Notes under the pieces: model-generated
The model's database searches: none
The model's input: the letters and a program-made list of their open reading frames with translations, nothing else
What the model was told of the DNA's origin: nothing
NCBI GenBank assembly: GCA_035648555.1
Contig: DASRLF010000020.1
Location: 2,606 to 66,605, forward strand
Direction: 5' to 3'
DNA from: Pseudolabrys sp.
GTDB taxonomy: Bacteria; Pseudomonadota; Alphaproteobacteria; Rhizobiales; Xanthobacteraceae
Length of the DNA: 64,000 bases
Shown: piece by piece, positions 3,069-58,337 of the stretch
Layout of the letters: each line of letters starts with the position of its first letter
Position numbering within the stretch: the first letter of the stretch is position 1
Program-made: the position numbers and the translations under genes

Positions 3069-4241
3069 TCAATACGAGCGCGGCAGACCGAGCACGTGCT
3101 CGGCCAGATAAGACAGGATCATGTTGGTCGAAATCGGCGCCACCTGGTAGAGCCGTGTCTCGCGGAATTTGCGCTCGACGTCGTATTCCTCGGCGAAACC
3201 GAAACCGCCGTGGGTCTGCACGCACATATCGGCGGCAAACCACGAGGCGTCGGCGGCCAGGAGCTTCGCCATATTGGCCTCCGGCCCGATGTCGGCGCCC
3301 GCTTCGTATTTGGCTGCGGCCTCGTGCACCATCAATTCGGCGGCGCGCATCTGCGCATAGGCGCGCGCGATCGGAAACTGCACGCCCTGGTTCTGCCCAA
3401 TCGGGCGGCCGAACAGCGCGCGCTCCTTGGCGTAAGCGGTCGCCTTGTTGATGAACCATTTGGCGTCGCCGATGCATTCGGCGGCGATCAAAATGCGTTC
3501 GGCGTTCATGCCGGAGAGAATGTAGCGGAAGCCCTGCCCCTCTTCGCCGATCAGATTTTCCGCCGGCACCCGCAAGTCGTCGAAGAACACCTCCGTGGTG
3601 GCGTGGTTCATCATGGTGCGGATCGGGTTGATGCTGATGCTGGTGCCTGCGGCGAGCCGCATGTCGACCAGAAAGACCGATAGACCGTCGGTGCGTTTCT
3701 TGACCTGCTCCTTCGGCGTGGTGCGCGCCAGCAGCAGCAGCAGGTCGGAATGTTCGGCGCGCGAGGTCCAGATTTTCTGGCCGTTGATGACGTAGTGGCC
3801 GTTGCCTTCCCTCCGCGCCGTAGTGCGCAAAGACAGAGTGTCGGTCCCCGACGTCGGCTCGGTGACGCCGAAGGCCTGCAAGCGCAATTCCCCACTGGCG
3901 ATTTTCGGAAGGTAGATTTGTTTTTGCTCGGGCAAACCGTGCCGCAGGATCGTGCCCATGGTGTACATCTGCGCGTGGCAGGCGGCGCCGTTGCAGCCGG
4001 AGGCCTGGATTTCCTCCAGGATCGCGCAAGCAGCGCCAATCGGCAGACCGCTGCCGCCGAATTCCTCCGGGATCAAGGCTGCGAGATAGCCGGCTTCGGT
4101 GAGCGCGCCGACGAATTCAGTCGGATAAGTTCTTTCGCGATCGAGCGCCCGCCAATATTCGCCGGGAAACTTGGCGCACAAAGCGCGCACCGACGCGCGG
4201 ATGTCGGCAAAGTCCTCATGCTGGGCGCTGCGCTTGCTCAT
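3069..4241 (-). CDS. Acyl-CoA dehydrogenase family protein
   Basis: FGVTEPTSGTD, NGQKIWTS, LFGRPIGQNQ, HGGFGFAEEYDVERKFRE motifs. Start 4241 overlaps the upstream stop (ATGA). Confidence 0.93.
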   Translation of the reverse strand: MSKRSAQHEDFADIRASVRALCAKFPGEYWRALDRERTYPTEFVGALTEAGYLAALIPEEFGGSGLPIGAACAILEEIQASGCNGAACHAQMYTMGTILRHGLPEQKQIYLPKIASGELRLQAFGVTEPTSGTDTLSLRTTARREGNGHYVINGQKIWTSRAEHSDLLLLLARTTPKEQVKKRTDGLSVFLVDMRLAAGTSISINPIRTMMNHATTEVFFDDLRVPAENLIGEEGQGFRYILSGMNAERILIAAECIGDAKWFINKATAYAKERALFGRPIGQNQGVQFPIARAYAQMRAAELMVHEAAAKYEAGADIGPEANMAKLLAADASWFAADMCVQTHGGFGFAEEYDVERKFRETRLYQVAPISTNMILSYLAEHVLGLPRSY

Positions 4242-5108: not shown

Positions 5109-6212
5109 CTAACCCCAGACTTCCTTTGCGACCTCAACGATCATCTTCAGCTTGGCCCATTGCTCGTCCTCCGCCAAGACATTGCCCTCCTCGGTCGAGG
5201 CGAAGCCGCATTGCGGCGACAAACAAAGCTGATCAAGCGAGATATATTTCGCCGCCTCCTCGATGCGGCGCTTGAGATCGTCCTTGTTCTCCAGCCGGCC
5301 GGTCTTGGTGGTGACGAGCCCGAGCACGACATGGCGGTCCTTCGGCACCAGTTTAAGCGGCTCGAAGCCACCGGCACGCGCGCTGTCGTATTCCATGAAA
5401 TAGCCGTGCACCTTGATGCGGTTGAACAGGATCTCCTGCTCGGCCTCATAGCCGCCCGAGCCCATGAAGGTCGATTTATAATTGCCGCGGCACAGGTGCA
5501 TCGTAATGCGCATGTCGGCGGGAATATCCGACATAGCGGTGTTGATCAAATCGCCGTAGAGTTCGCCCAGTTTTTCCGGATCGTCGCCGCGCGCTTCCAT
5601 CTGCGCGCGGTATTTTTCATCGCACAACATGGCGATGAACACCTCGTCGAGTTGCAGATAACGGCAGCCGGCATCGGCGAAGGCGCGCACGGCTTTTTTA
5701 TACGCTTGGCCGAGATCGTCGAAGAACGCGTCGAGCTTGGGATAAATATTTCGGTCGATCGGTGTCGGCACCGGCCTGCCATAAGCCGCCGATGGCGATG
5801 GAATCGTAATCTTAGGCGTGCGCTGGGTGTGCGCGGCGACAAACTTGAAATGCTCGATCATCGGATGGCCGGAGAACCCGACTTTTCCCGCGACCTTGAG
5901 GCCTTCATTGCGCGTGGTGACTGCGGCGAAGGCGATGCCGGTGTCCATCACGTGCTTTTCGATGCCGTCGAGGCCCCAGAGAAAATCGAGGTGCCACCAG
6001 GACCGGCGGAATTCGCCGTCGGTGATCGATTGCAGACCGGCGTCTTCCTGGCGCTTGATGACGCGCTCGATCTCGCGATCTTCGACCGCCTTCAGTGCGC
6101 CGGTATCGATCTCACCTTTGGCGCGCTGCTCGCGCGCCTTTTTCAGCGCGGCTGGTCGCAGCAGGCTGCCGACATGGTCGGCGCGGAATGGCGGCTTTGT
6201 TCGCATCGTCAT
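5109..6212 (-). CDS. Cobalamin-independent methionine synthase II family protein (MetE catalytic barrel only, YxjH-like); array copy 5 of 5 in transcription order
   Basis: DHVGSLLR, TDGEFRR, Zn ligands H-L-C (MHLCRGN), E (YFMEYD) and C (SPQCGF); 367 aa, about half of full MetE. Confidence 0.9.
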   Translation of the reverse strand: MTMRTKPPFRADHVGSLLRPAALKKAREQRAKGEIDTGALKAVEDREIERVIKRQEDAGLQSITDGEFRRSWWHLDFLWGLDGIEKHVMDTGIAFAAVTTRNEGLKVAGKVGFSGHPMIEHFKFVAAHTQRTPKITIPSPSAAYGRPVPTPIDRNIYPKLDAFFDDLGQAYKKAVRAFADAGCRYLQLDEVFIAMLCDEKYRAQMEARGDDPEKLGELYGDLINTAMSDIPADMRITMHLCRGNYKSTFMGSGGYEAEQEILFNRIKVHGYFMEYDSARAGGFEPLKLVPKDRHVVLGLVTTKTGRLENKDDLKRRIEEAAKYISLDQLCLSPQCGFASTEEGNVLAEDEQWAKLKMIVEVAKEVWG

Positions 6213-7321
6213 CGGCTACCCCATACTTCTTGCGCGATTTCCACGATCATCTTGAGCTTCGCCCATTGCTCGTCCTCGGCCAGGATATTCCCTTCCTCGG
6301 TCGAGGCGAAGCCGCATTGCGGCGAAAGGCAAAGTTGGTCAAGCGGGACAAATTTCGTCGCCTGATCGATGCGGCGCTTGATGGCGTCCTTGGATTCCAG
6401 CCGGCCGCTTTTGCTGGTGACCAAACCAAGCACTACGGTCTTACCCTTGGGTACGAAACGCAGCGGCTCGAAACCGCCGGCGCGATCCGAGTCGTATTCC
6501 ATGAAATAGCCGTGCACGTTGATCGCATTGAACAGAATCTCCGCGACCGGCTCGTAGCCGCCAGAGGCCACGAAGGTAGACTGGAAATTTCCGCGGCACA
6601 GATGCATGGCGATGGCCATGTCGGCGGGAATGTCGGAGATCGCGGCGTTGATCAGCCGGGCATAGGCCGCGGGCAATTGGGCCGGATCCTCGCCGCGTTC
6701 GCTGACCTGCGCCCGCAGTTTGGGATCGCAAAGATAAGCGAGATTGACTTCATCGAATTGCAGATAGCGGCAGCCGGCATCGGCAAAACCACGCACCGCC
6801 TGAGCGTAGGTCCGGCCCAGATCAGAATAAAAGTCCTCCATGTCTGGATAAATCGCGCCCGGAATGGCGTCGCGGCCGTAGCGGAAATGCAACGACGACG
6901 GCGACGGGATCGTCATTTTCGGCGAAACGCGCGTGTGCGCCTTGACGAACTTGAAATGCTCCAGCATCGGATGACCGGAAAACGTGCCGAGCTCGCCGGT
7001 CACGCGCAGCATCATCGGCTTGGGGTTATTGCCCGCGAACTTGATCTTGCGTTCGCCGAGATAGGCTTCGACGCCATCAAGCGCGCCCAGAAAATCGTAA
7101 TTCCAGAAGGCGCGGCGAAATTCGCCGTCAGTGACGGCTTTTAGCCCAATGTCTTCTTGCTTCTTAATGACGGTGGCGATCTCGCGATCCTCGATCGCCT
7201 TGAGCTGATCGGCGGTGAGCTCGCCTTTTTCGCGCTGGGCGCGGGCTTCTTTCAGCGGCGCGGTCCGCAACAGGCTGCCGACATGATCGGCGCGGAAGGG
7301 AGGACTAAGACGTAATGTCAT
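6209..7321 (-). CDS. Cobalamin-independent methionine synthase II family protein; array copy 4 of 5
   Basis: Same motifs: MHLCRGNFQST, YFMEYD, SPQCGFASTEEGN; 370 aa. Confidence 0.9.
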   Translation of the reverse strand: MTLRLSPPFRADHVGSLLRTAPLKEARAQREKGELTADQLKAIEDREIATVIKKQEDIGLKAVTDGEFRRAFWNYDFLGALDGVEAYLGERKIKFAGNNPKPMMLRVTGELGTFSGHPMLEHFKFVKAHTRVSPKMTIPSPSSLHFRYGRDAIPGAIYPDMEDFYSDLGRTYAQAVRGFADAGCRYLQFDEVNLAYLCDPKLRAQVSERGEDPAQLPAAYARLINAAISDIPADMAIAMHLCRGNFQSTFVASGGYEPVAEILFNAINVHGYFMEYDSDRAGGFEPLRFVPKGKTVVLGLVTSKSGRLESKDAIKRRIDQATKFVPLDQLCLSPQCGFASTEEGNILAEDEQWAKLKMIVEIAQEVWGSR

Positions 7322-39529: not shown

Positions 39530-42367
39530 ATGGCCTCCCTCGCCCTCGAACAAGACACGCGCGCGCCGTCCGCACCGCCGTCTAAGGCGTCGAGCGAATT
39601 GATCGATAGCCGCGCCGCCGCCGCCGATCTGGAAAAGATCGCCAAAAGCCATGCCGGCAACGAACGCGACATGCGCAGCGCGGTCGCTCAACGCCTAAAG
39701 GCCGCGCTGATCGAGGGCCGCGCCAAGGCCGAGCAGATGCTGCTCAAGGATCGCCACGGCCGGCGCTGCGCCGAGCGGATCTGCAAACTGGAAGACGAGA
39801 TCATCCGCCTGCTGTTCGAGTTCGCGCGCAAACATCTCTATCCGTCGCAGAATCCGTCCGAGGCCGAGCGCATGACGGTGATCGCCACCGGCGGCTATGG
39901 CCGCGGACTGCAGGCGCCCGGCTCCGACATCGATCTGCTGTTCCTGTTGCCTTACAAGCAGACCGCCTGGGGCGAGTCGATCGCGGAAGCGATCCTCTAC
40001 TGCCTGTGGGACACCGGGCTCAAGGTCGGCCATGCCACCCGCTCGGTCGACGAATGCATCCGCCAGGCCAAGGCGGACATGACCATCCGCACCGCCATCC
40101 TGGAAGCGCGCTTTCTGCTCGGCGATAAAAAACTGTTCGACGAATTACAGACGCGCTTCGACAAAGAAGTGGTGCGCAATACCGCGCCGCAATTCGTCGC
40201 CGCCAAACTGGCCGAGCGCGAAGACCGCGTCCGCCGCACGGGGCAATCACGCTATCTGGTCGAGCCGAACGTCAAGGACGGCAAAGGCGGCCTGCGCGAT
40301 CTCCATACGTTGTTCTGGATCGCGAAATACGTCTACCGCGTGCGCGAGCCGGACGAACTGATCAAGCGCGGCGTGTTCGACAAGCCAGAGTATCAGCGCT
40401 TCCGCGCCTGCGAGGATTTCCTCTGGTCGGTGCGCTGCCACATGCATTTCGTCACCGGCCGCGCCGAGGAGCGGCTGTCGTTCGACATCCAGCGCGAGAT
40501 CGCGGTGCGGCTCGGCTATACCGAGCATCCGGGCCAGCAAGACGTCGAGCGCTTCATGAAGCACTACTTCCTGATCGCCAAGGACGTCGGCGATCTGACC
40601 GCGATCCTGTGCGCCGAGCTGGAAGACAGCCACGCCAAGAGCGTGCCGGTGCTCAGCCGCGTGATGGCGAAATTCCGCCCGGTCAAACGGCGCAAGCTCG
40701 CCGAAAGCGACGACTTCATCGTCGACAAGAACCGCATCAATGTCGCCAGCGCAGGGATTTTCAAGCGCGATCCGGTCAATTTGATCCGCATCTTCCATCT
40801 GGCGCAGAAGCACAATCTCGCCTTCCACCCCGACGCCATGCGCGCCATCACGCGCTCGCTCAAGCTGATCGACGGCAAACTGCGCGAGGATGAGGAAGCC
40901 AACCAGCTGTTCCTGGAAATCCTTACCTCCAAGAACGACCCGGAAACCGTGCTGCGGCGGATGAACGAAGCCGGCGTGCTCGGCCACTTCGTGCCGGCCT
41001 TCGGCAAGGTCGTGGCGATGATGCAGTTCAACATGTATCACCACTATACGGTCGACGAGCACCTGCTGCGCTGCATCGGCATGTTGACCGAGATCGAGCG
41101 CGACGGCGGCGAGACGCCGCTCGCCAGCGAACTGTTTCACAAATTGCTGCCCGGCAACCGCACGGTGATTTACGTCACCATGTTCCTGCACGATATCGCC
41201 AAGGGCCGGCTCGAGGATCACTCGATCGCCGGTGCGCGGGTGGCGCGGCGGTTTTGTCCGCGCCTGGGATTCTCGGCGACCGACACCGACACCGTCGCCT
41301 GGCTGATCGAGCAGCACCTGACGATGTCGAGCGTGGCGCAGTCGCGCGATCTGTCCGACCGCAAAACAATTGAGAATTTCGCCGCGGTGGTACAATCGGC
41401 CGAGCGGCTGAAGCTGCTGACCATTCTCACCACCGCCGACATCCGCGCGGTCGGTCCCGGCGTGTGGAACGGCTGGAAGGCGCAACTGCTGCGCACGCTT
41501 TATTACGAGACAGAGCCGGTGCTCACCGGCGGCTTCTCGGAAGTGAACCGCGCCCAGCGCGTCGCCATGGCGCAGGCCGAATTCCGCGAGGCGATCAAGG
41601 ATTGGCCGCGCGAGCGGCTGGAGACCTATATCGCGCACCTCTATCCGGCCTATTGGCTCAAAGTCGATCTGCCGCACAAGATCGAGCACGCCAAATTCGT
41701 GCGCGTCGCCGAGGACGCCGGCAAATCGCTTGCCACCACCATCGCCTTCGATGCCGGGCGCGCGGTGACCGAGCTCACGGTGCTGGCGCCCGACCACCCC
41801 TGGCTGCTGTCGATCATCGCCGGCGCCTGCGCCATGGCCGGCGCTAACATCGTCGACGCGCAGATCTTCACCACCACCGACGGGCGTGCGCTCGACACCA
41901 TTTCACTGTCGCGCGAATTCGACCGCGACGAGGACGAGGAACGGCGCGCCAACCGGATCGCCGACTCGCTCGAAAAGGCGCTGCGTGGCGAATTGCGGCT
42001 ACCCGACGTGGTGGCCAAGCGCGCGCCCCCGAAAGGACGCATCAAGGCCTTCGCGATCGAGCCGTCGGTTACCATCAACAACCAGTGGTCCCACCGATAC
42101 ACCATGGTGGAAGTGGCCGGGCTCGACCGCACCGGGCTACTCTATGAGATGACCACGACGCTGTCGAAGCTCAATCTCAACATTATCTCGGCTCACGTCG
42201 CCACCTTCGGCGAGCGCGTGGTGGACGTGTTCTACGTGACCGATCTGTTGGGCGCGCAGATCACTTCGCCGACCCGCCAGGCTGCCATCAAGCGCGCGCT
42301 GATCGCTTTGTTCGCGGGCCTCGAAGCGGAGGCCAAAAGTAGAGCCAAAAGCGACGCCAAGGCGTAA
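39530..42367 (+). CDS. glnD: [Protein-PII] uridylyltransferase / uridylyl-removing enzyme
   Basis: ATGGYGRG..APGSDIDLLFL, EPNVKDGKGGLRD, HHYTVDEH, LHDIAKG, two ACT domains. Confidence 0.97.
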   Translation: MASLALEQDTRAPSAPPSKASSELIDSRAAAADLEKIAKSHAGNERDMRSAVAQRLKAALIEGRAKAEQMLLKDRHGRRCAERICKLEDEIIRLLFEFARKHLYPSQNPSEAERMTVIATGGYGRGLQAPGSDIDLLFLLPYKQTAWGESIAEAILYCLWDTGLKVGHATRSVDECIRQAKADMTIRTAILEARFLLGDKKLFDELQTRFDKEVVRNTAPQFVAAKLAEREDRVRRTGQSRYLVEPNVKDGKGGLRDLHTLFWIAKYVYRVREPDELIKRGVFDKPEYQRFRACEDFLWSVRCHMHFVTGRAEERLSFDIQREIAVRLGYTEHPGQQDVERFMKHYFLIAKDVGDLTAILCAELEDSHAKSVPVLSRVMAKFRPVKRRKLAESDDFIVDKNRINVASAGIFKRDPVNLIRIFHLAQKHNLAFHPDAMRAITRSLKLIDGKLREDEEANQLFLEILTSKNDPETVLRRMNEAGVLGHFVPAFGKVVAMMQFNMYHHYTVDEHLLRCIGMLTEIERDGGETPLASELFHKLLPGNRTVIYVTMFLHDIAKGRLEDHSIAGARVARRFCPRLGFSATDTDTVAWLIEQHLTMSSVAQSRDLSDRKTIENFAAVVQSAERLKLLTILTTADIRAVGPGVWNGWKAQLLRTLYYETEPVLTGGFSEVNRAQRVAMAQAEFREAIKDWPRERLETYIAHLYPAYWLKVDLPHKIEHAKFVRVAEDAGKSLATTIAFDAGRAVTELTVLAPDHPWLLSIIAGACAMAGANIVDAQIFTTTDGRALDTISLSREFDRDEDEERRANRIADSLEKALRGELRLPDVVAKRAPPKGRIKAFAIEPSVTINNQWSHRYTMVEVAGLDRTGLLYEMTTTLSKLNLNIISAHVATFGERVVDVFYVTDLLGAQITSPTRQAAIKRALIALFAGLEAEAKSRAKSDAKA

Positions 42368-56391: not shown

Positions 56392-56548
56392 CTTCCCCTC
56401 TCCCCTTTTGGGGAGAGGGTGCCGAGCGAACGTCAGTGAGCGAGGCGGGTGAGGGGTTACGGACTATCGTGAGACTATGACCCATCACCCGGCTCGCGCT
56501 TCGCTATCGCTCCGCGCGATCCACCCTCTCCCTCAAGGGAGAGGGAAG
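56392..56548. repeat. REP doublet / miniature inverted-repeat element (CCCTCTCCC...GGGAGAGGG class)
   Basis: Left hairpin CCCTCTCCCC-TTTT-GGGGAGAGGG (56396-56419); right hairpin CCCTCTCCCT-CA-AGGGAGAGGG (56524-56545); inner GGGTGAGGGG/CCCATCACCC; outer CTTCCC/GGGAAG. Confidence 0.8.
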
Positions 56549-56643: not shown

Positions 56644-56928
56644 TCAGATCGCCATCTTGAGTTCCTTGGTGGCGCGAAACGCTACCTTGCGGCTGGCCTT
56701 GATCTGGATCGGCTCGCCGGTCGCGGGATTACGGCCCATGCGGGCGGCGCGCTTGCGCACTTGCAGGATGCCGAGCCCGGCGATCTTCACCCGCTCGCCC
56801 TTTTTCAGGTGCTTGGTGATCAGACCGACGAGGTCTTCGAGCATTTCCTTGCCCTGCTTTTTCGTGAGTGAATGCTGATCGGCCAGCGTGTCGGCCAGAT
56901 GCTTGGTGGTGATCGGCTTGTCTGCCAT
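56644..56928 (-). CDS. hup: HU family DNA-binding protein
   Basis: LKKGERVKIAGLG.LQVRKRAARMGRNPATGEPIQIKAS.KVAFRA; AGGAG RBS. Confidence 0.95.
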   Translation of the reverse strand: MADKPITTKHLADTLADQHSLTKKQGKEMLEDLVGLITKHLKKGERVKIAGLGILQVRKRAARMGRNPATGEPIQIKASRKVAFRATKELKMAI

Positions 56929-57049: not shown

Positions 57050-57080
57050 CGTTGCCGCTGGCGGGGGTTTCGTCTATTCC
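57050..57080 (+). repeat. 31-bp direct repeat copy 1 (sigma70-like promoter TTGCCG-N17-TATTCC)
   Basis: CGTTGCCGCTGGCGGGGGTTTCGTCTATTCC, identical to 58221-58251. Confidence 0.9.
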
Positions 57081-57142
57081 GACCCGGGGCGCCCTCCAGA
57101 CGTCCTTCCGAGGCGCGTCGACGATGGCCGCACAGTATTCCG

Positions 57143-58204
57143 ATGGGTGATGTCTACAAACCGGTGCGCGTCGCGGCAGTGCAAGCCGCTTCTGTTTTTC
57201 TCGACCGGGAGGGATCGACCGAGAAAGCATGCCGGCTCATTCGTGAAGCCGGCGCGCAGGGCGCCCGCGTGATCGGCTTCCCCGAAGGCTTCATTCCGGC
57301 GCACCCGGTCTGGTTTCACCATCACGCCGCGACCGCCGGCATCTCGAACAGACTGTCGGTGGAGCTGTTCAAGAACGCCGTCGAAGTCCCCGGCGCCGAA
57401 ACGGAGGCGCTCTGCGCGGCGGCGCGCGACGCCAACGCCTATGTCGTCATCGGCTTGTGCGAGAAACTTCCGAACACGCTGGGCACCCTGTTCAACACGC
57501 AGCTCTATATCGGACCGGACGGCGGCCTCATCCGCAAACATCAGAAGATCATGCCGACAGTCGGAGAACGGCTGGTGCACGCCGGCGGGCATGGCGACAC
57601 GTTCGGCGCATTTGCGACCGAGTTCGGGCCGGCATCCGGCCTGATATGCGGCGAGAACTCAAATCCGCTGGCGATCTTCGCGCTGATCGCCGAAGGCACC
57701 CGCATTCACGTCATGAGCTGGCCCAATCATTTTCCGACCAGCGGAGATCCGCTGCGCAACCGGGTCGCCATCGACTCGCAGGCCTTCGCCCAGATGAGCA
57801 AGGCCTTCGTGATTTCCGCCTGCGGAACCGTCGACGAAGCGATGATCAAGATGCTCAATGTCGGTCCCGAGGGCGAACGGTTCCTAAGAAACCCGGACTG
57901 CTGCGGCGGCAGTTTGATTGTCGACCCGATGAGCCGGATTATCGCGGGGCCGATGGGGCCGGAAGAAGGGATTCTGTACGCCGACTGCGACCTGGAACTC
58001 GCCATCCAGATGAAACTGCGGCACGATTTCGCGGGCCACTACAATCGCCCCGATATTTTCCAGCTTCATGTCAATCGCGCGGCGCCGCAGCTCTATCACG
58101 TGCACAACGCCGAACTCCCTCTGGAGCTCGGAACGGATGCGCCAGGCGCCCTGCCGCGGCCGACGGGGCGTTTAGCGCCGCCCGAAACAGAACCGCAGCA
58201 ATAA
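57143..58204 (+). CDS. Nitrilase (carbon-nitrogen hydrolase superfamily)
   Basis: RVAAVQAA, catalytic E (FPEG), K (HQKIMPT), C (ICGEN), GHYNRPDIF. Confidence 0.9.
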   Translation: MGDVYKPVRVAAVQAASVFLDREGSTEKACRLIREAGAQGARVIGFPEGFIPAHPVWFHHHAATAGISNRLSVELFKNAVEVPGAETEALCAAARDANAYVVIGLCEKLPNTLGTLFNTQLYIGPDGGLIRKHQKIMPTVGERLVHAGGHGDTFGAFATEFGPASGLICGENSNPLAIFALIAEGTRIHVMSWPNHFPTSGDPLRNRVAIDSQAFAQMSKAFVISACGTVDEAMIKMLNVGPEGERFLRNPDCCGGSLIVDPMSRIIAGPMGPEEGILYADCDLELAIQMKLRHDFAGHYNRPDIFQLHVNRAAPQLYHVHNAELPLELGTDAPGALPRPTGRLAPPETEPQQ

Positions 58205-58220
58205 TCCGATCTGCCAGGCC

Positions 58221-58251
58221 CGTTGCCGCTGGCGGGGGTTTCGTCTATTCC
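58221..58251 (+). repeat. 31-bp direct repeat copy 2 (probable tRNA-Arg promoter)
   Basis: Identical to 57050-57080; ends 9 nt before the tRNA 5' end. Confidence 0.9.
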
Positions 58252-58260
58252 TGCGTTCAG

Positions 58261-58337
58261 GCGCCCGTAGCTCAGCTGGATAGAGCGTTGCCCTCCGAAG
58301 GCAAAGGTCGGACGTTCGAATCGTCTCGGGCGCGCCA
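58261..58337 (+). tRNA. tRNA-Arg (anticodon CCG)
   Basis: Acceptor GCGCCCG/CGGGCGC, D arm with GGA, anticodon stem TTGCC/GGCAA with loop CTCCGAA, T loop TTCGAAT, encoded CCA. Confidence 0.98.

Follow-up and report, generated by a model that had tools for sequence, protein, structure and literature searches.

Islands and prophages that target tRNA genes are reportedly classified, in a scheme that goes back to Williams in 2002, with the anticodon loop as one sublocation. Classical elements of this sublocation are said to recombine site-specifically there, to carry direct tRNA repeats at their ends, to accrete in tandem at one tRNA gene, and to bring in the 3′ part of the gene while displacing the host 3′ fragment. 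In the dusA systems the element reportedly replaces the host gene's 5′ end. Farrugia et al. (2015; PMC4482086) describe dusA-specific integrases that direct integration to the 5′ end of a protein-coding target, a tyrosine integrase reportedly always being present. In the HTVC019P-type pelagiphages the integrating element restores the 5′ end of a tRNA gene, tRNA-Arg being among the targets (Zhao et al., bioRxiv 10.1101/410191), and islands of the tycheposon type grow at tRNA genes (bioRxiv 10.1101/2020.12.28.424599). Here we analysed a locus of Pseudolabrys sp. in which a nitrilase gene stands between two exact copies of a 31-nucleotide (nt) sequence, upstream of the gene for tRNA-Arg(CCG), in a 64,000-nt stretch of contig DASRLF010000020.1 (positions 2,606 to 66,605; hereafter the window). 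The locus is very probably what deletions have left of a small cassette without an integrase, which entered the single-copy tRNA-Arg(CCG) gene by site-specific recombination in its anticodon loop.

Like the pelagiphages, such an element would insert inside a tRNA gene that is rebuilt from the 5′ part of the element and the 3′ part of the host, with displacement of the host 5′ fragment. Unlike them, it belongs with non-phage islands and single-gene cassettes of soil Hyphomicrobiales that build up into arrays; the segment they bring can be shown to begin at the −35 box, and the left repeat in the window has lost its tRNA part, leaving the promoter alone repeated. The Hyphomicrobiales elements resemble the classical anticodon-loop elements in their site-specific recombination, terminal tRNA repeats and tandem accretion, and are their mirror image in the half of the gene they supply; because that half is the 5′ one, the promoter has to travel with the element. 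They differ from the dusA systems, which target a protein-coding gene and reportedly always have a tyrosine integrase. With cis-mobilizable elements (CIMEs), which are remnants lacking an integrase, bounded by attachment (att) sites and placed in tandem with integrative and conjugative elements (ICEs), and with tycheposon islands they share recombinase-less cargo and att repeats, stacked beside a tRNA gene, from which accumulating degenerate elements are pushed away; the window copy has no left att core and is no longer even a CIME. A sequence-only reading of the window had suggested an unrecognised integration route, a suggestion that we do not follow. Restoration of the 5′ end on integration is already on record for pelagiphages (bioRxiv 10.1101/410191). 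The locus in the window is a worn member of an already known kind, in which 5′-restoring tRNA integration is combined with accreted integrase-less segments.

Results

The repeat occurs once at the empty sites of two relatives

The exact direct repeat (CGTTGCCGCTGGCGGGGGTTTCGTCTATTCC) reported by the sequence-only reading was recovered at positions 57050–57080 (P1) and 58221–58251 (P2) of the plus strand, 1171 nt from start to start. None of 100 shuffles of the window contained two matches to it, even when up to 3 mismatches were allowed. In the 2.99-Mb genome (G000), a 71-contig, 92%-complete metagenome-assembled genome (MAG), it is present twice, both times at the tRNA-Arg locus and not at many unrelated loci. 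Copy 1 contains TTGCCG (57052–57057), 17 intervening nt and TATTCC (57075–57080), which bears out the −35/−10-like layout that had been proposed. The same box is conserved before tRNA-Arg(CCG) across the genus: at 10 same-genus loci, cgTTGCCG, a variable spacer and gtttcgTCTATT ((T)CTATT) precede nt 1 of the tRNA by 9–11 nt. The hexamers fit the alphaproteobacterial promoter consensus, CTTGAC-N17-CTATAT. Hexamers that stay conserved while the spacer between them drifts, set at a constant distance from the mature 5′ end of a stable RNA, are what its promoter would be expected to show, and from this conservation we infer that the repeat represents two copies of the tRNA-Arg promoter.

Comparison of the interval between hup and the tRNA gene in relatives revealed two empty sites, in G002 (locus L007) and G005 (L009), each with hup, one box, a leader and the tRNA gene and nothing between. 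In both genomes the BLAST alignments of the hup side and of the tRNA side share 30 nt, and the sequences around the single box agree with the left flank of copy 1 (...gggcttttttgcagtgcggtgggg) and the right flank of copy 2. P1 therefore has the left surroundings of the resident hup–tRNA intergenic region and would be the displaced chromosomal box; the upstream flank of P2 is unlike hup intergenic sequence. Given empty sites with matching flanks, the nitrilase segment is an insertion relative to G002 and G005, and neither of these relatives, in which the nitrilase is missing from this site, carries two boxes there. That a gene had been inserted with duplication of the promoter, as the sequence-only reading held, is thus upheld by the single-box sites; its placement of the insertion upstream of the tRNA is not, since the related strain described below and other relatives point to the anticodon loop. 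Two further loci, L030 (G007) and L031 (G008:C35), have a small open reading frame (ORF) ending ...YDPxSGTYLGYDGxRHPC between hup and a single promoter box, which we take from its motif to be BA14K-like; the hup–tRNA interval is therefore variable for other reasons too.

A related strain retains a longer form of the cassette

An intermediate structure was found at the orthologous locus of a closely related strain, assembled independently from another sample (L033; ENA ERZ28533575). From left to right it has hup, P1 with a leader, a decayed tRNA 5′ half that ends CCTCCGAAG/ctggaaga, some 165 nt, the nitrilase, a glyoxalase gene (130 amino acids (aa), about 440 nt), P2, leader and tRNA-Arg. The nitrilase of L033 (P0001) is 97% identical to that of the window in protein and 92.6% in nucleotide sequence, and the flanks are 92–96% identical; this similar divergence of cargo and flanks suggests vertical inheritance of the cassette. 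The L033 repeat runs from the promoter through tRNA sequence to a fixed endpoint, CCTCCGAAG, as it also does in L120, L119 and L116. In the window the repeat comprises only the 31-nt box, with no tRNA sequence after copy 1; the tRNA-bounded repeat being absent there and present in L033, the window is a derivative and not an intact member. Nor does the window have two intact att sites like those of a CIME, the left core (the 5′ half ending CCTCCGAAG) being deleted, whereas L119, L037 and L038 keep both cores.

The 62 nt between the end of P1 and the nitrilase start codon align to two separated parts of the L033 cassette leader. The first part (57081–57114, plus strand; GACCCGGGGCGCCCTCCAGACGTCCTTCCGAGGC) corresponds to the left end of the cassette from its ninth base (29/36 with L033 and 25/28 with L109), a sequence that follows the anticodon-loop junction in L033, L109, L092, L037 and L120. 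The second (57115–57142, plus strand), the proximal 5′ untranslated region of the nitrilase, matches the final 28 nt ahead of the start codon in other cassette copies (L033, L037, L119, L120 and L121). Three pieces are missing relative to L033: the tRNA 5′ half with its leader and 8 nt from the end of the cassette; some 121 nt of the sequence leading into the nitrilase, with a hairpin, a T-tract and the TTTGCAATGAATGT block that precedes the nitrilase in most other genomic contexts examined; and the glyoxalase gene. The last gap is marked by the short junction between the nitrilase stop codon and P2 (58205–58220, plus strand), which reads TAAtccg/atctg/ccaggcc in the window and TAAtccg...glyoxalase...ccaggcc in L033.

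The motif GGCGCCC lies 7–8 nt after each repeat copy, as the sequence-only reading had noticed. A reading of the first instance as tRNA-start sequence does not hold: the motif after copy 1 is part of GACCCGGGGCGCCCTCCAGACGTCCTTCCGAGGC and aligns to cassette-internal sequence, L109, for example, having GGCGCCCTCCTGAATGTCC at the same place, where GGCGCCCTCC is also found. We had considered that this GGCGCCC might be tRNA nt 1–6 joined by a microhomology deletion, and rejected this on the alignment with L109, L037 and L092. The likeness to the start of the tRNA is coincidental, as judged from these alignments.

The promoter copies themselves have diverged in L033. Its P2 differs from the window repeat at 1 of 31 positions, ending TATTCA, not TATTCC; its P1 and P2 differ from each other at 5/31 positions, whereas P1 and P2 of the window are identical. 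Four changes in the L033 P1 are specific to that lineage and derived with respect to outgroup promoters, one of them in the −35 box (TTGTCG), and the window P1 is unchanged at these positions. L033 P1 faces a dead tRNA fragment and, just after it in the cassette leader, a terminator-like hairpin with a T-tract (L033 positions 3858–3874), at which transcripts from the displaced promoter would be stopped. By contrast, no terminator-like feature lies between P1 and the nitrilase in the window.

Candidate anticodon-loop insertions at tRNA-Arg(CCG) in Hyphomicrobiales

Islands of 10–12 kb stand at tRNA-Arg in six other genomes (G019, G013, G012, G023, G003 and G014). In their repeat unit an inverted tRNA 3′ half is followed, across a spacer of about 78 nt, by the promoter box with the leader and by tRNA nt 1–40, which end ...GTTGCCCTCCGAAG and give way to island sequence; the hup-adjacent copies in G013 and G019 are a decayed promoter and 5′ remnant. 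P2 of the window has the architecture of these island right ends and is probably element-borne. So, by the same comparison, are the 9-nt leader and tRNA nt 1–40 that follow it (58252–58300, plus strand), up to the anticodon-loop junction ...CCTCCGAAG at which the displaced copies in relatives all stop. These ends place the recombination point in the anticodon loop (...CCTCCGAAG), with promoter, leader and tRNA nt 1–40 supplied by the element.

Displaced 5′ halves were present in 11 of 81 genus genomes. An exact-pattern scan with one genome per species gave 66 loci with the ...CCTCCGAAG/CTG junction in Bradyrhizobium, Bosea, Pseudolabrys, Tardiphaga, Nitrobacter and other Hyphomicrobiales. At every one a promoter typical of its own genus lies upstream, and the genes downstream of this shared junction are unrelated from locus to locus. 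No match to the displaced-5′-half junction was found among viral contigs. In L032 (G004:C129, about 3600–3950), about 120 nt separate a displaced tRNA-Arg 5′ half (nt 1–41) from a different tRNA-Arg(CCG) sequence variant downstream of it, which suggests that a 5′ half brought in by an element can differ from the tRNA already in place.

An intact 5.7-kb element was found in Bradyrhizobium cosmicum RH_3a_1 (L116). It is bounded by an exact 85-nt direct repeat (491–575 and 6204–6288) that begins at the −35 box, takes in the leader and stops at tRNA nt 40; its second copy goes on into the complete tRNA. The genes of the element are for an HNH-domain protein, for a large serine recombinase of 522 aa (PF00239 and PF07508) and for a protein resembling ParB/RepB. 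Just upstream of its element-borne promoter, the 3′ part of the tRNA recurs as an inverted copy of 51 nt (6121–6171 versus 6273–6323, 90% complementary), which could be an insulator, could form a hairpin with read-through transcripts, or could be a relic. Homologs of this serine recombinase occur in at least 7 of the 66 loci, mostly 0.4–2.6 kb inside the island and 6.3 kb inside it in L100, and tyrosine integrases at two or three others. A tyrosine integrase was also sought in the arrays of the Pseudolabrys relatives, where no PF00589 match was found (G019:C7, 20–47 kb; G013:C31, 1–16 kb). A conserved gene beside the island right ends was likewise rejected, the genes there being unrelated cargo or mutually dissimilar sequences with no Pfam or NCBIfam match.

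The nitrilase and its genomic contexts

The nitrilase (57143–58204, plus strand) is the sole remaining cargo. Searches of the interval for ORFs and with Pfam found no recombinase between the repeat copies, in agreement with the sequence-only reading, which had seen the nitrilase as the only gene there and no integrase. The protein has 353 aa and matches the CN_hydrolase family over profile positions 1–254 of 256 (PF00795, 7e-37). It aligns with nitrilases and cyanide dihydratases in the Protein Data Bank (PDB; 3e-49); against 8p4i, LICGEN falls opposite LMCWEH, and the cysteine of the CGE (C-x-E) motif of the nitrilase superfamily is in place.

At the usual nitrilase locus of the genus (L004; G013:C33), the gene stands between those for a site-2 protease with CBS domains and a pterin-4a-carbinolamine dehydratase. 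The corresponding site of the window genome, which lies outside the window (contig C43, about 41823–41989), has kept the dehydratase side, with neither protease nor nitrilase, so that the copy linked to the tRNA gene is the sole nitrilase of this type in that genome. Close homologs (88–94% aa identity) occur in many unrelated gene contexts. Among these are L034–L036 and L039–L044, with nitrilases of 88–92% aa identity in unrelated neighbourhoods; most of them keep a block of about 70–90 nt upstream (TTTGCAATGAATGT...GATGATC...GCATTCTG-ATG), a possible regulatory element.

In L120, an intact chromosomal promoter and 5′ half are directly followed by the nitrilase cassette, complete with the same leader, some 190 nt long. 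This cassette and leader also occur, as a mini-cassette of about 1.3 kb, inside arrays (L119, L121, L037 and L038), with a 22-nt tRNA-derived core (aatagaccGCTGCCCTCCGAAG) on both sides; in L119 the cores flanking the nitrilase lie around 40–62 and 1340–1362. These four arrays are without a recombinase and have an integron-like arrangement.

A proposed history and its rivals

The comparisons allow an order of events to be proposed. The right end of the element would have carried the tRNA promoter, leader and tRNA nt 1–40, and integration would have fused this copy to the chromosomal 3′ half, so that the tRNA would stay functional. Pushed to the left end, the promoter and 5′ half of the chromosome would have come to face the first gene of the element. 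The common ancestor with L033 would have had the order hup, P1, 5′ half, nitrilase, (glyoxalase), P2 and tRNA. The three pieces missing relative to L033 can be read as deletions in the window lineage that would have left the two 31-nt boxes as the repeat. Since the hairpin and the conserved upstream block are among the sequence removed, P1 may now transcribe the nitrilase, and capture of the promoter by deletion is plausible from the arrangement. The displaced tRNA promoter may thus have been co-opted for the nitrilase and kept by selection. The idea of the sequence-only reading that the cargo gains a stable-RNA promoter survives to the extent that one copy points into the nitrilase; the gain would have come through deletion after site-specific insertion, not through the insertion itself. 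Its expectation that the cassette could excise by recombination between the repeats needs a similar division. With the left att core gone, site-specific excision is not expected, and homologous recombination across the 31 nt could delete the gene at low frequency.

The arrangement could instead have arisen by direct insertion upstream of the tRNA gene with duplication of just the 31-nt promoter, in the manner of a long target-site duplication, which would amount to a new and excisable route. The exactness of the repeat with its abrupt ends on both sides, the single gene and absent integrase between the copies, and the existence of one-copy empty sites all agree with such an event. It is nevertheless highly improbable, being largely refuted already by L033 and L120, where the full promoter and tRNA 5′ half stand to the left of the same cassette and end at the anticodon-loop junction. 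The sequence after copy 1 is, moreover, the cassette-internal sequence found past that junction elsewhere, and the left edge of the repeat is the edge of the element-borne copy of the tRNA locus in all relatives. An artefact, that is, a chimeric contig joined at a short repeat in a MAG of 71 contigs and 92% completeness, has hardly any chance of being the explanation. The junctions specific to the window were absent from the other metagenome contigs scanned, as an artefact would predict; on the other hand, the independent L033 assembly has the same order of hup, promoter, nitrilase, promoter, tRNA and TctC-type gene, composition is uniform across the region, and the repeat, at 31 nt, falls short of the k-mer length with which common assemblers finish.

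Homologous recombination was also weighed, either as Campbell-style integration of a circular nitrilase segment through the promoter or as conversion of P1 from P2, in which case the identity of the copies would be recent and not selected. We consider this unlikely as a full account. The identity of P1 and P2 in the window, as against 5/31 differences in L033, would fit it, as would the 9-nt leaders after P1 and P2, which look exchanged between the window and L033 and hint at recombination between copies. Yet the L033 P1 is derived at all four differing positions, so decay in that strain explains the difference without conversion, and the cassette has diverged to the same extent as its flanks, which argues against recent re-insertion. 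Recombination of this kind would modify the history of a worn anticodon-loop cassette and not replace it.

Several observations weigh against that history as set out here. The swapped leaders are not explained by deletions only, so recombination or conversion between copies, or replacement of the right-end module, probably also occurred. A metagenome scan for the left junction of the window gave no match, and the window-specific junctions are in no other assembly. No recombinase for the Pseudolabrys cassettes was found, either in the window or in the Pseudolabrys cassettes of relatives: the window genome has no homolog of the Bradyrhizobium and Bosea serine recombinase, and the homologs in the genus (G041, G010, G017 and G018) do not adjoin tRNA-Arg pieces. 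Finally, the promoter activity of both copies is presumed from their conservation, and a scan for E. coli-type promoters, which is not tuned to alphaproteobacterial promoters, called neither copy.

Neighbouring features

The chromosomal left neighbour of the cassette is hup (56644–56928, minus strand), which encodes an HU-type DNA-binding protein (Pfam Bac_DNA_binding, 2.6e-28) and adjoins tRNA-Arg(CCG) in many members of the genus. Downstream of hup, a G/C-rich palindromic pair consisting of TCCCCTCTCCCCTTTTGGGGAGAGGG and a 73% copy (56394–56545) resembles repetitive extragenic palindromic (REP) sequences and forms inverted repeats at 56400–56421 and 56522–56543. The intact tRNA-Arg(CCG) gene occupies 58261–58337 on the plus strand (ARAGORN; Rfam RF00005, 65.9 bits); an Rfam scan of the region returned this tRNA only, and no foreign signal was seen in the composition across it. 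To the right of the tRNA gene lie genes for a TctC-type binding protein and an amidohydrolase. The tRNA and TctC genes are 84 nt apart in the window, and L033 has about 1.2 kb extra between them (L033 positions 5631–6909), with a 234-aa ORF that has no Pfam match; a repeat of the tRNA 3′ end was not seen within that segment.

Discussion

As regards the window itself, the result clarifies more than it surprises. It shows how a short direct repeat made of a promoter alone can arise around a single gene without an integrase, as the scar of a cassette whose att core has been deleted; such promoter-only repeats otherwise invite the proposal of a new mechanism. The locus is also an uncomplicated case in which the co-option of a displaced stable-RNA promoter by a metabolic gene could be tested.

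A much broader proposal is advanced here tentatively, and we would not expect it to hold in full. Soil Hyphomicrobiales may harbour a widespread, not properly described family of elements that insert into the anticodon loop of tRNA-Arg(CCG), as the mirror of the textbook arrangement, and carry a promoter, leader, tRNA 5′ half and inverted 3′ part. The candidate integrase of this family would be the large serine recombinase of Bradyrhizobium and Bosea. Integrase-less single-gene cassettes would form its integron-like arrays, and a displaced stable-RNA promoter would be set before the first cargo gene. The window would be an end point, with the promoter welded to the nitrilase and fixed in the chromosome.

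At the tRNA-Arg(CCG) gene of soil alphaproteobacteria, integration of the mirror-image type is common, the promoter and 5′ half moving along with the element, and island finders that seek only displaced 3′ fragments would miss such elements. With its promoter-to-anticodon repeats, inverted 3′ part and candidate serine integrase, the wider Hyphomicrobiales family may merit a study of its own.

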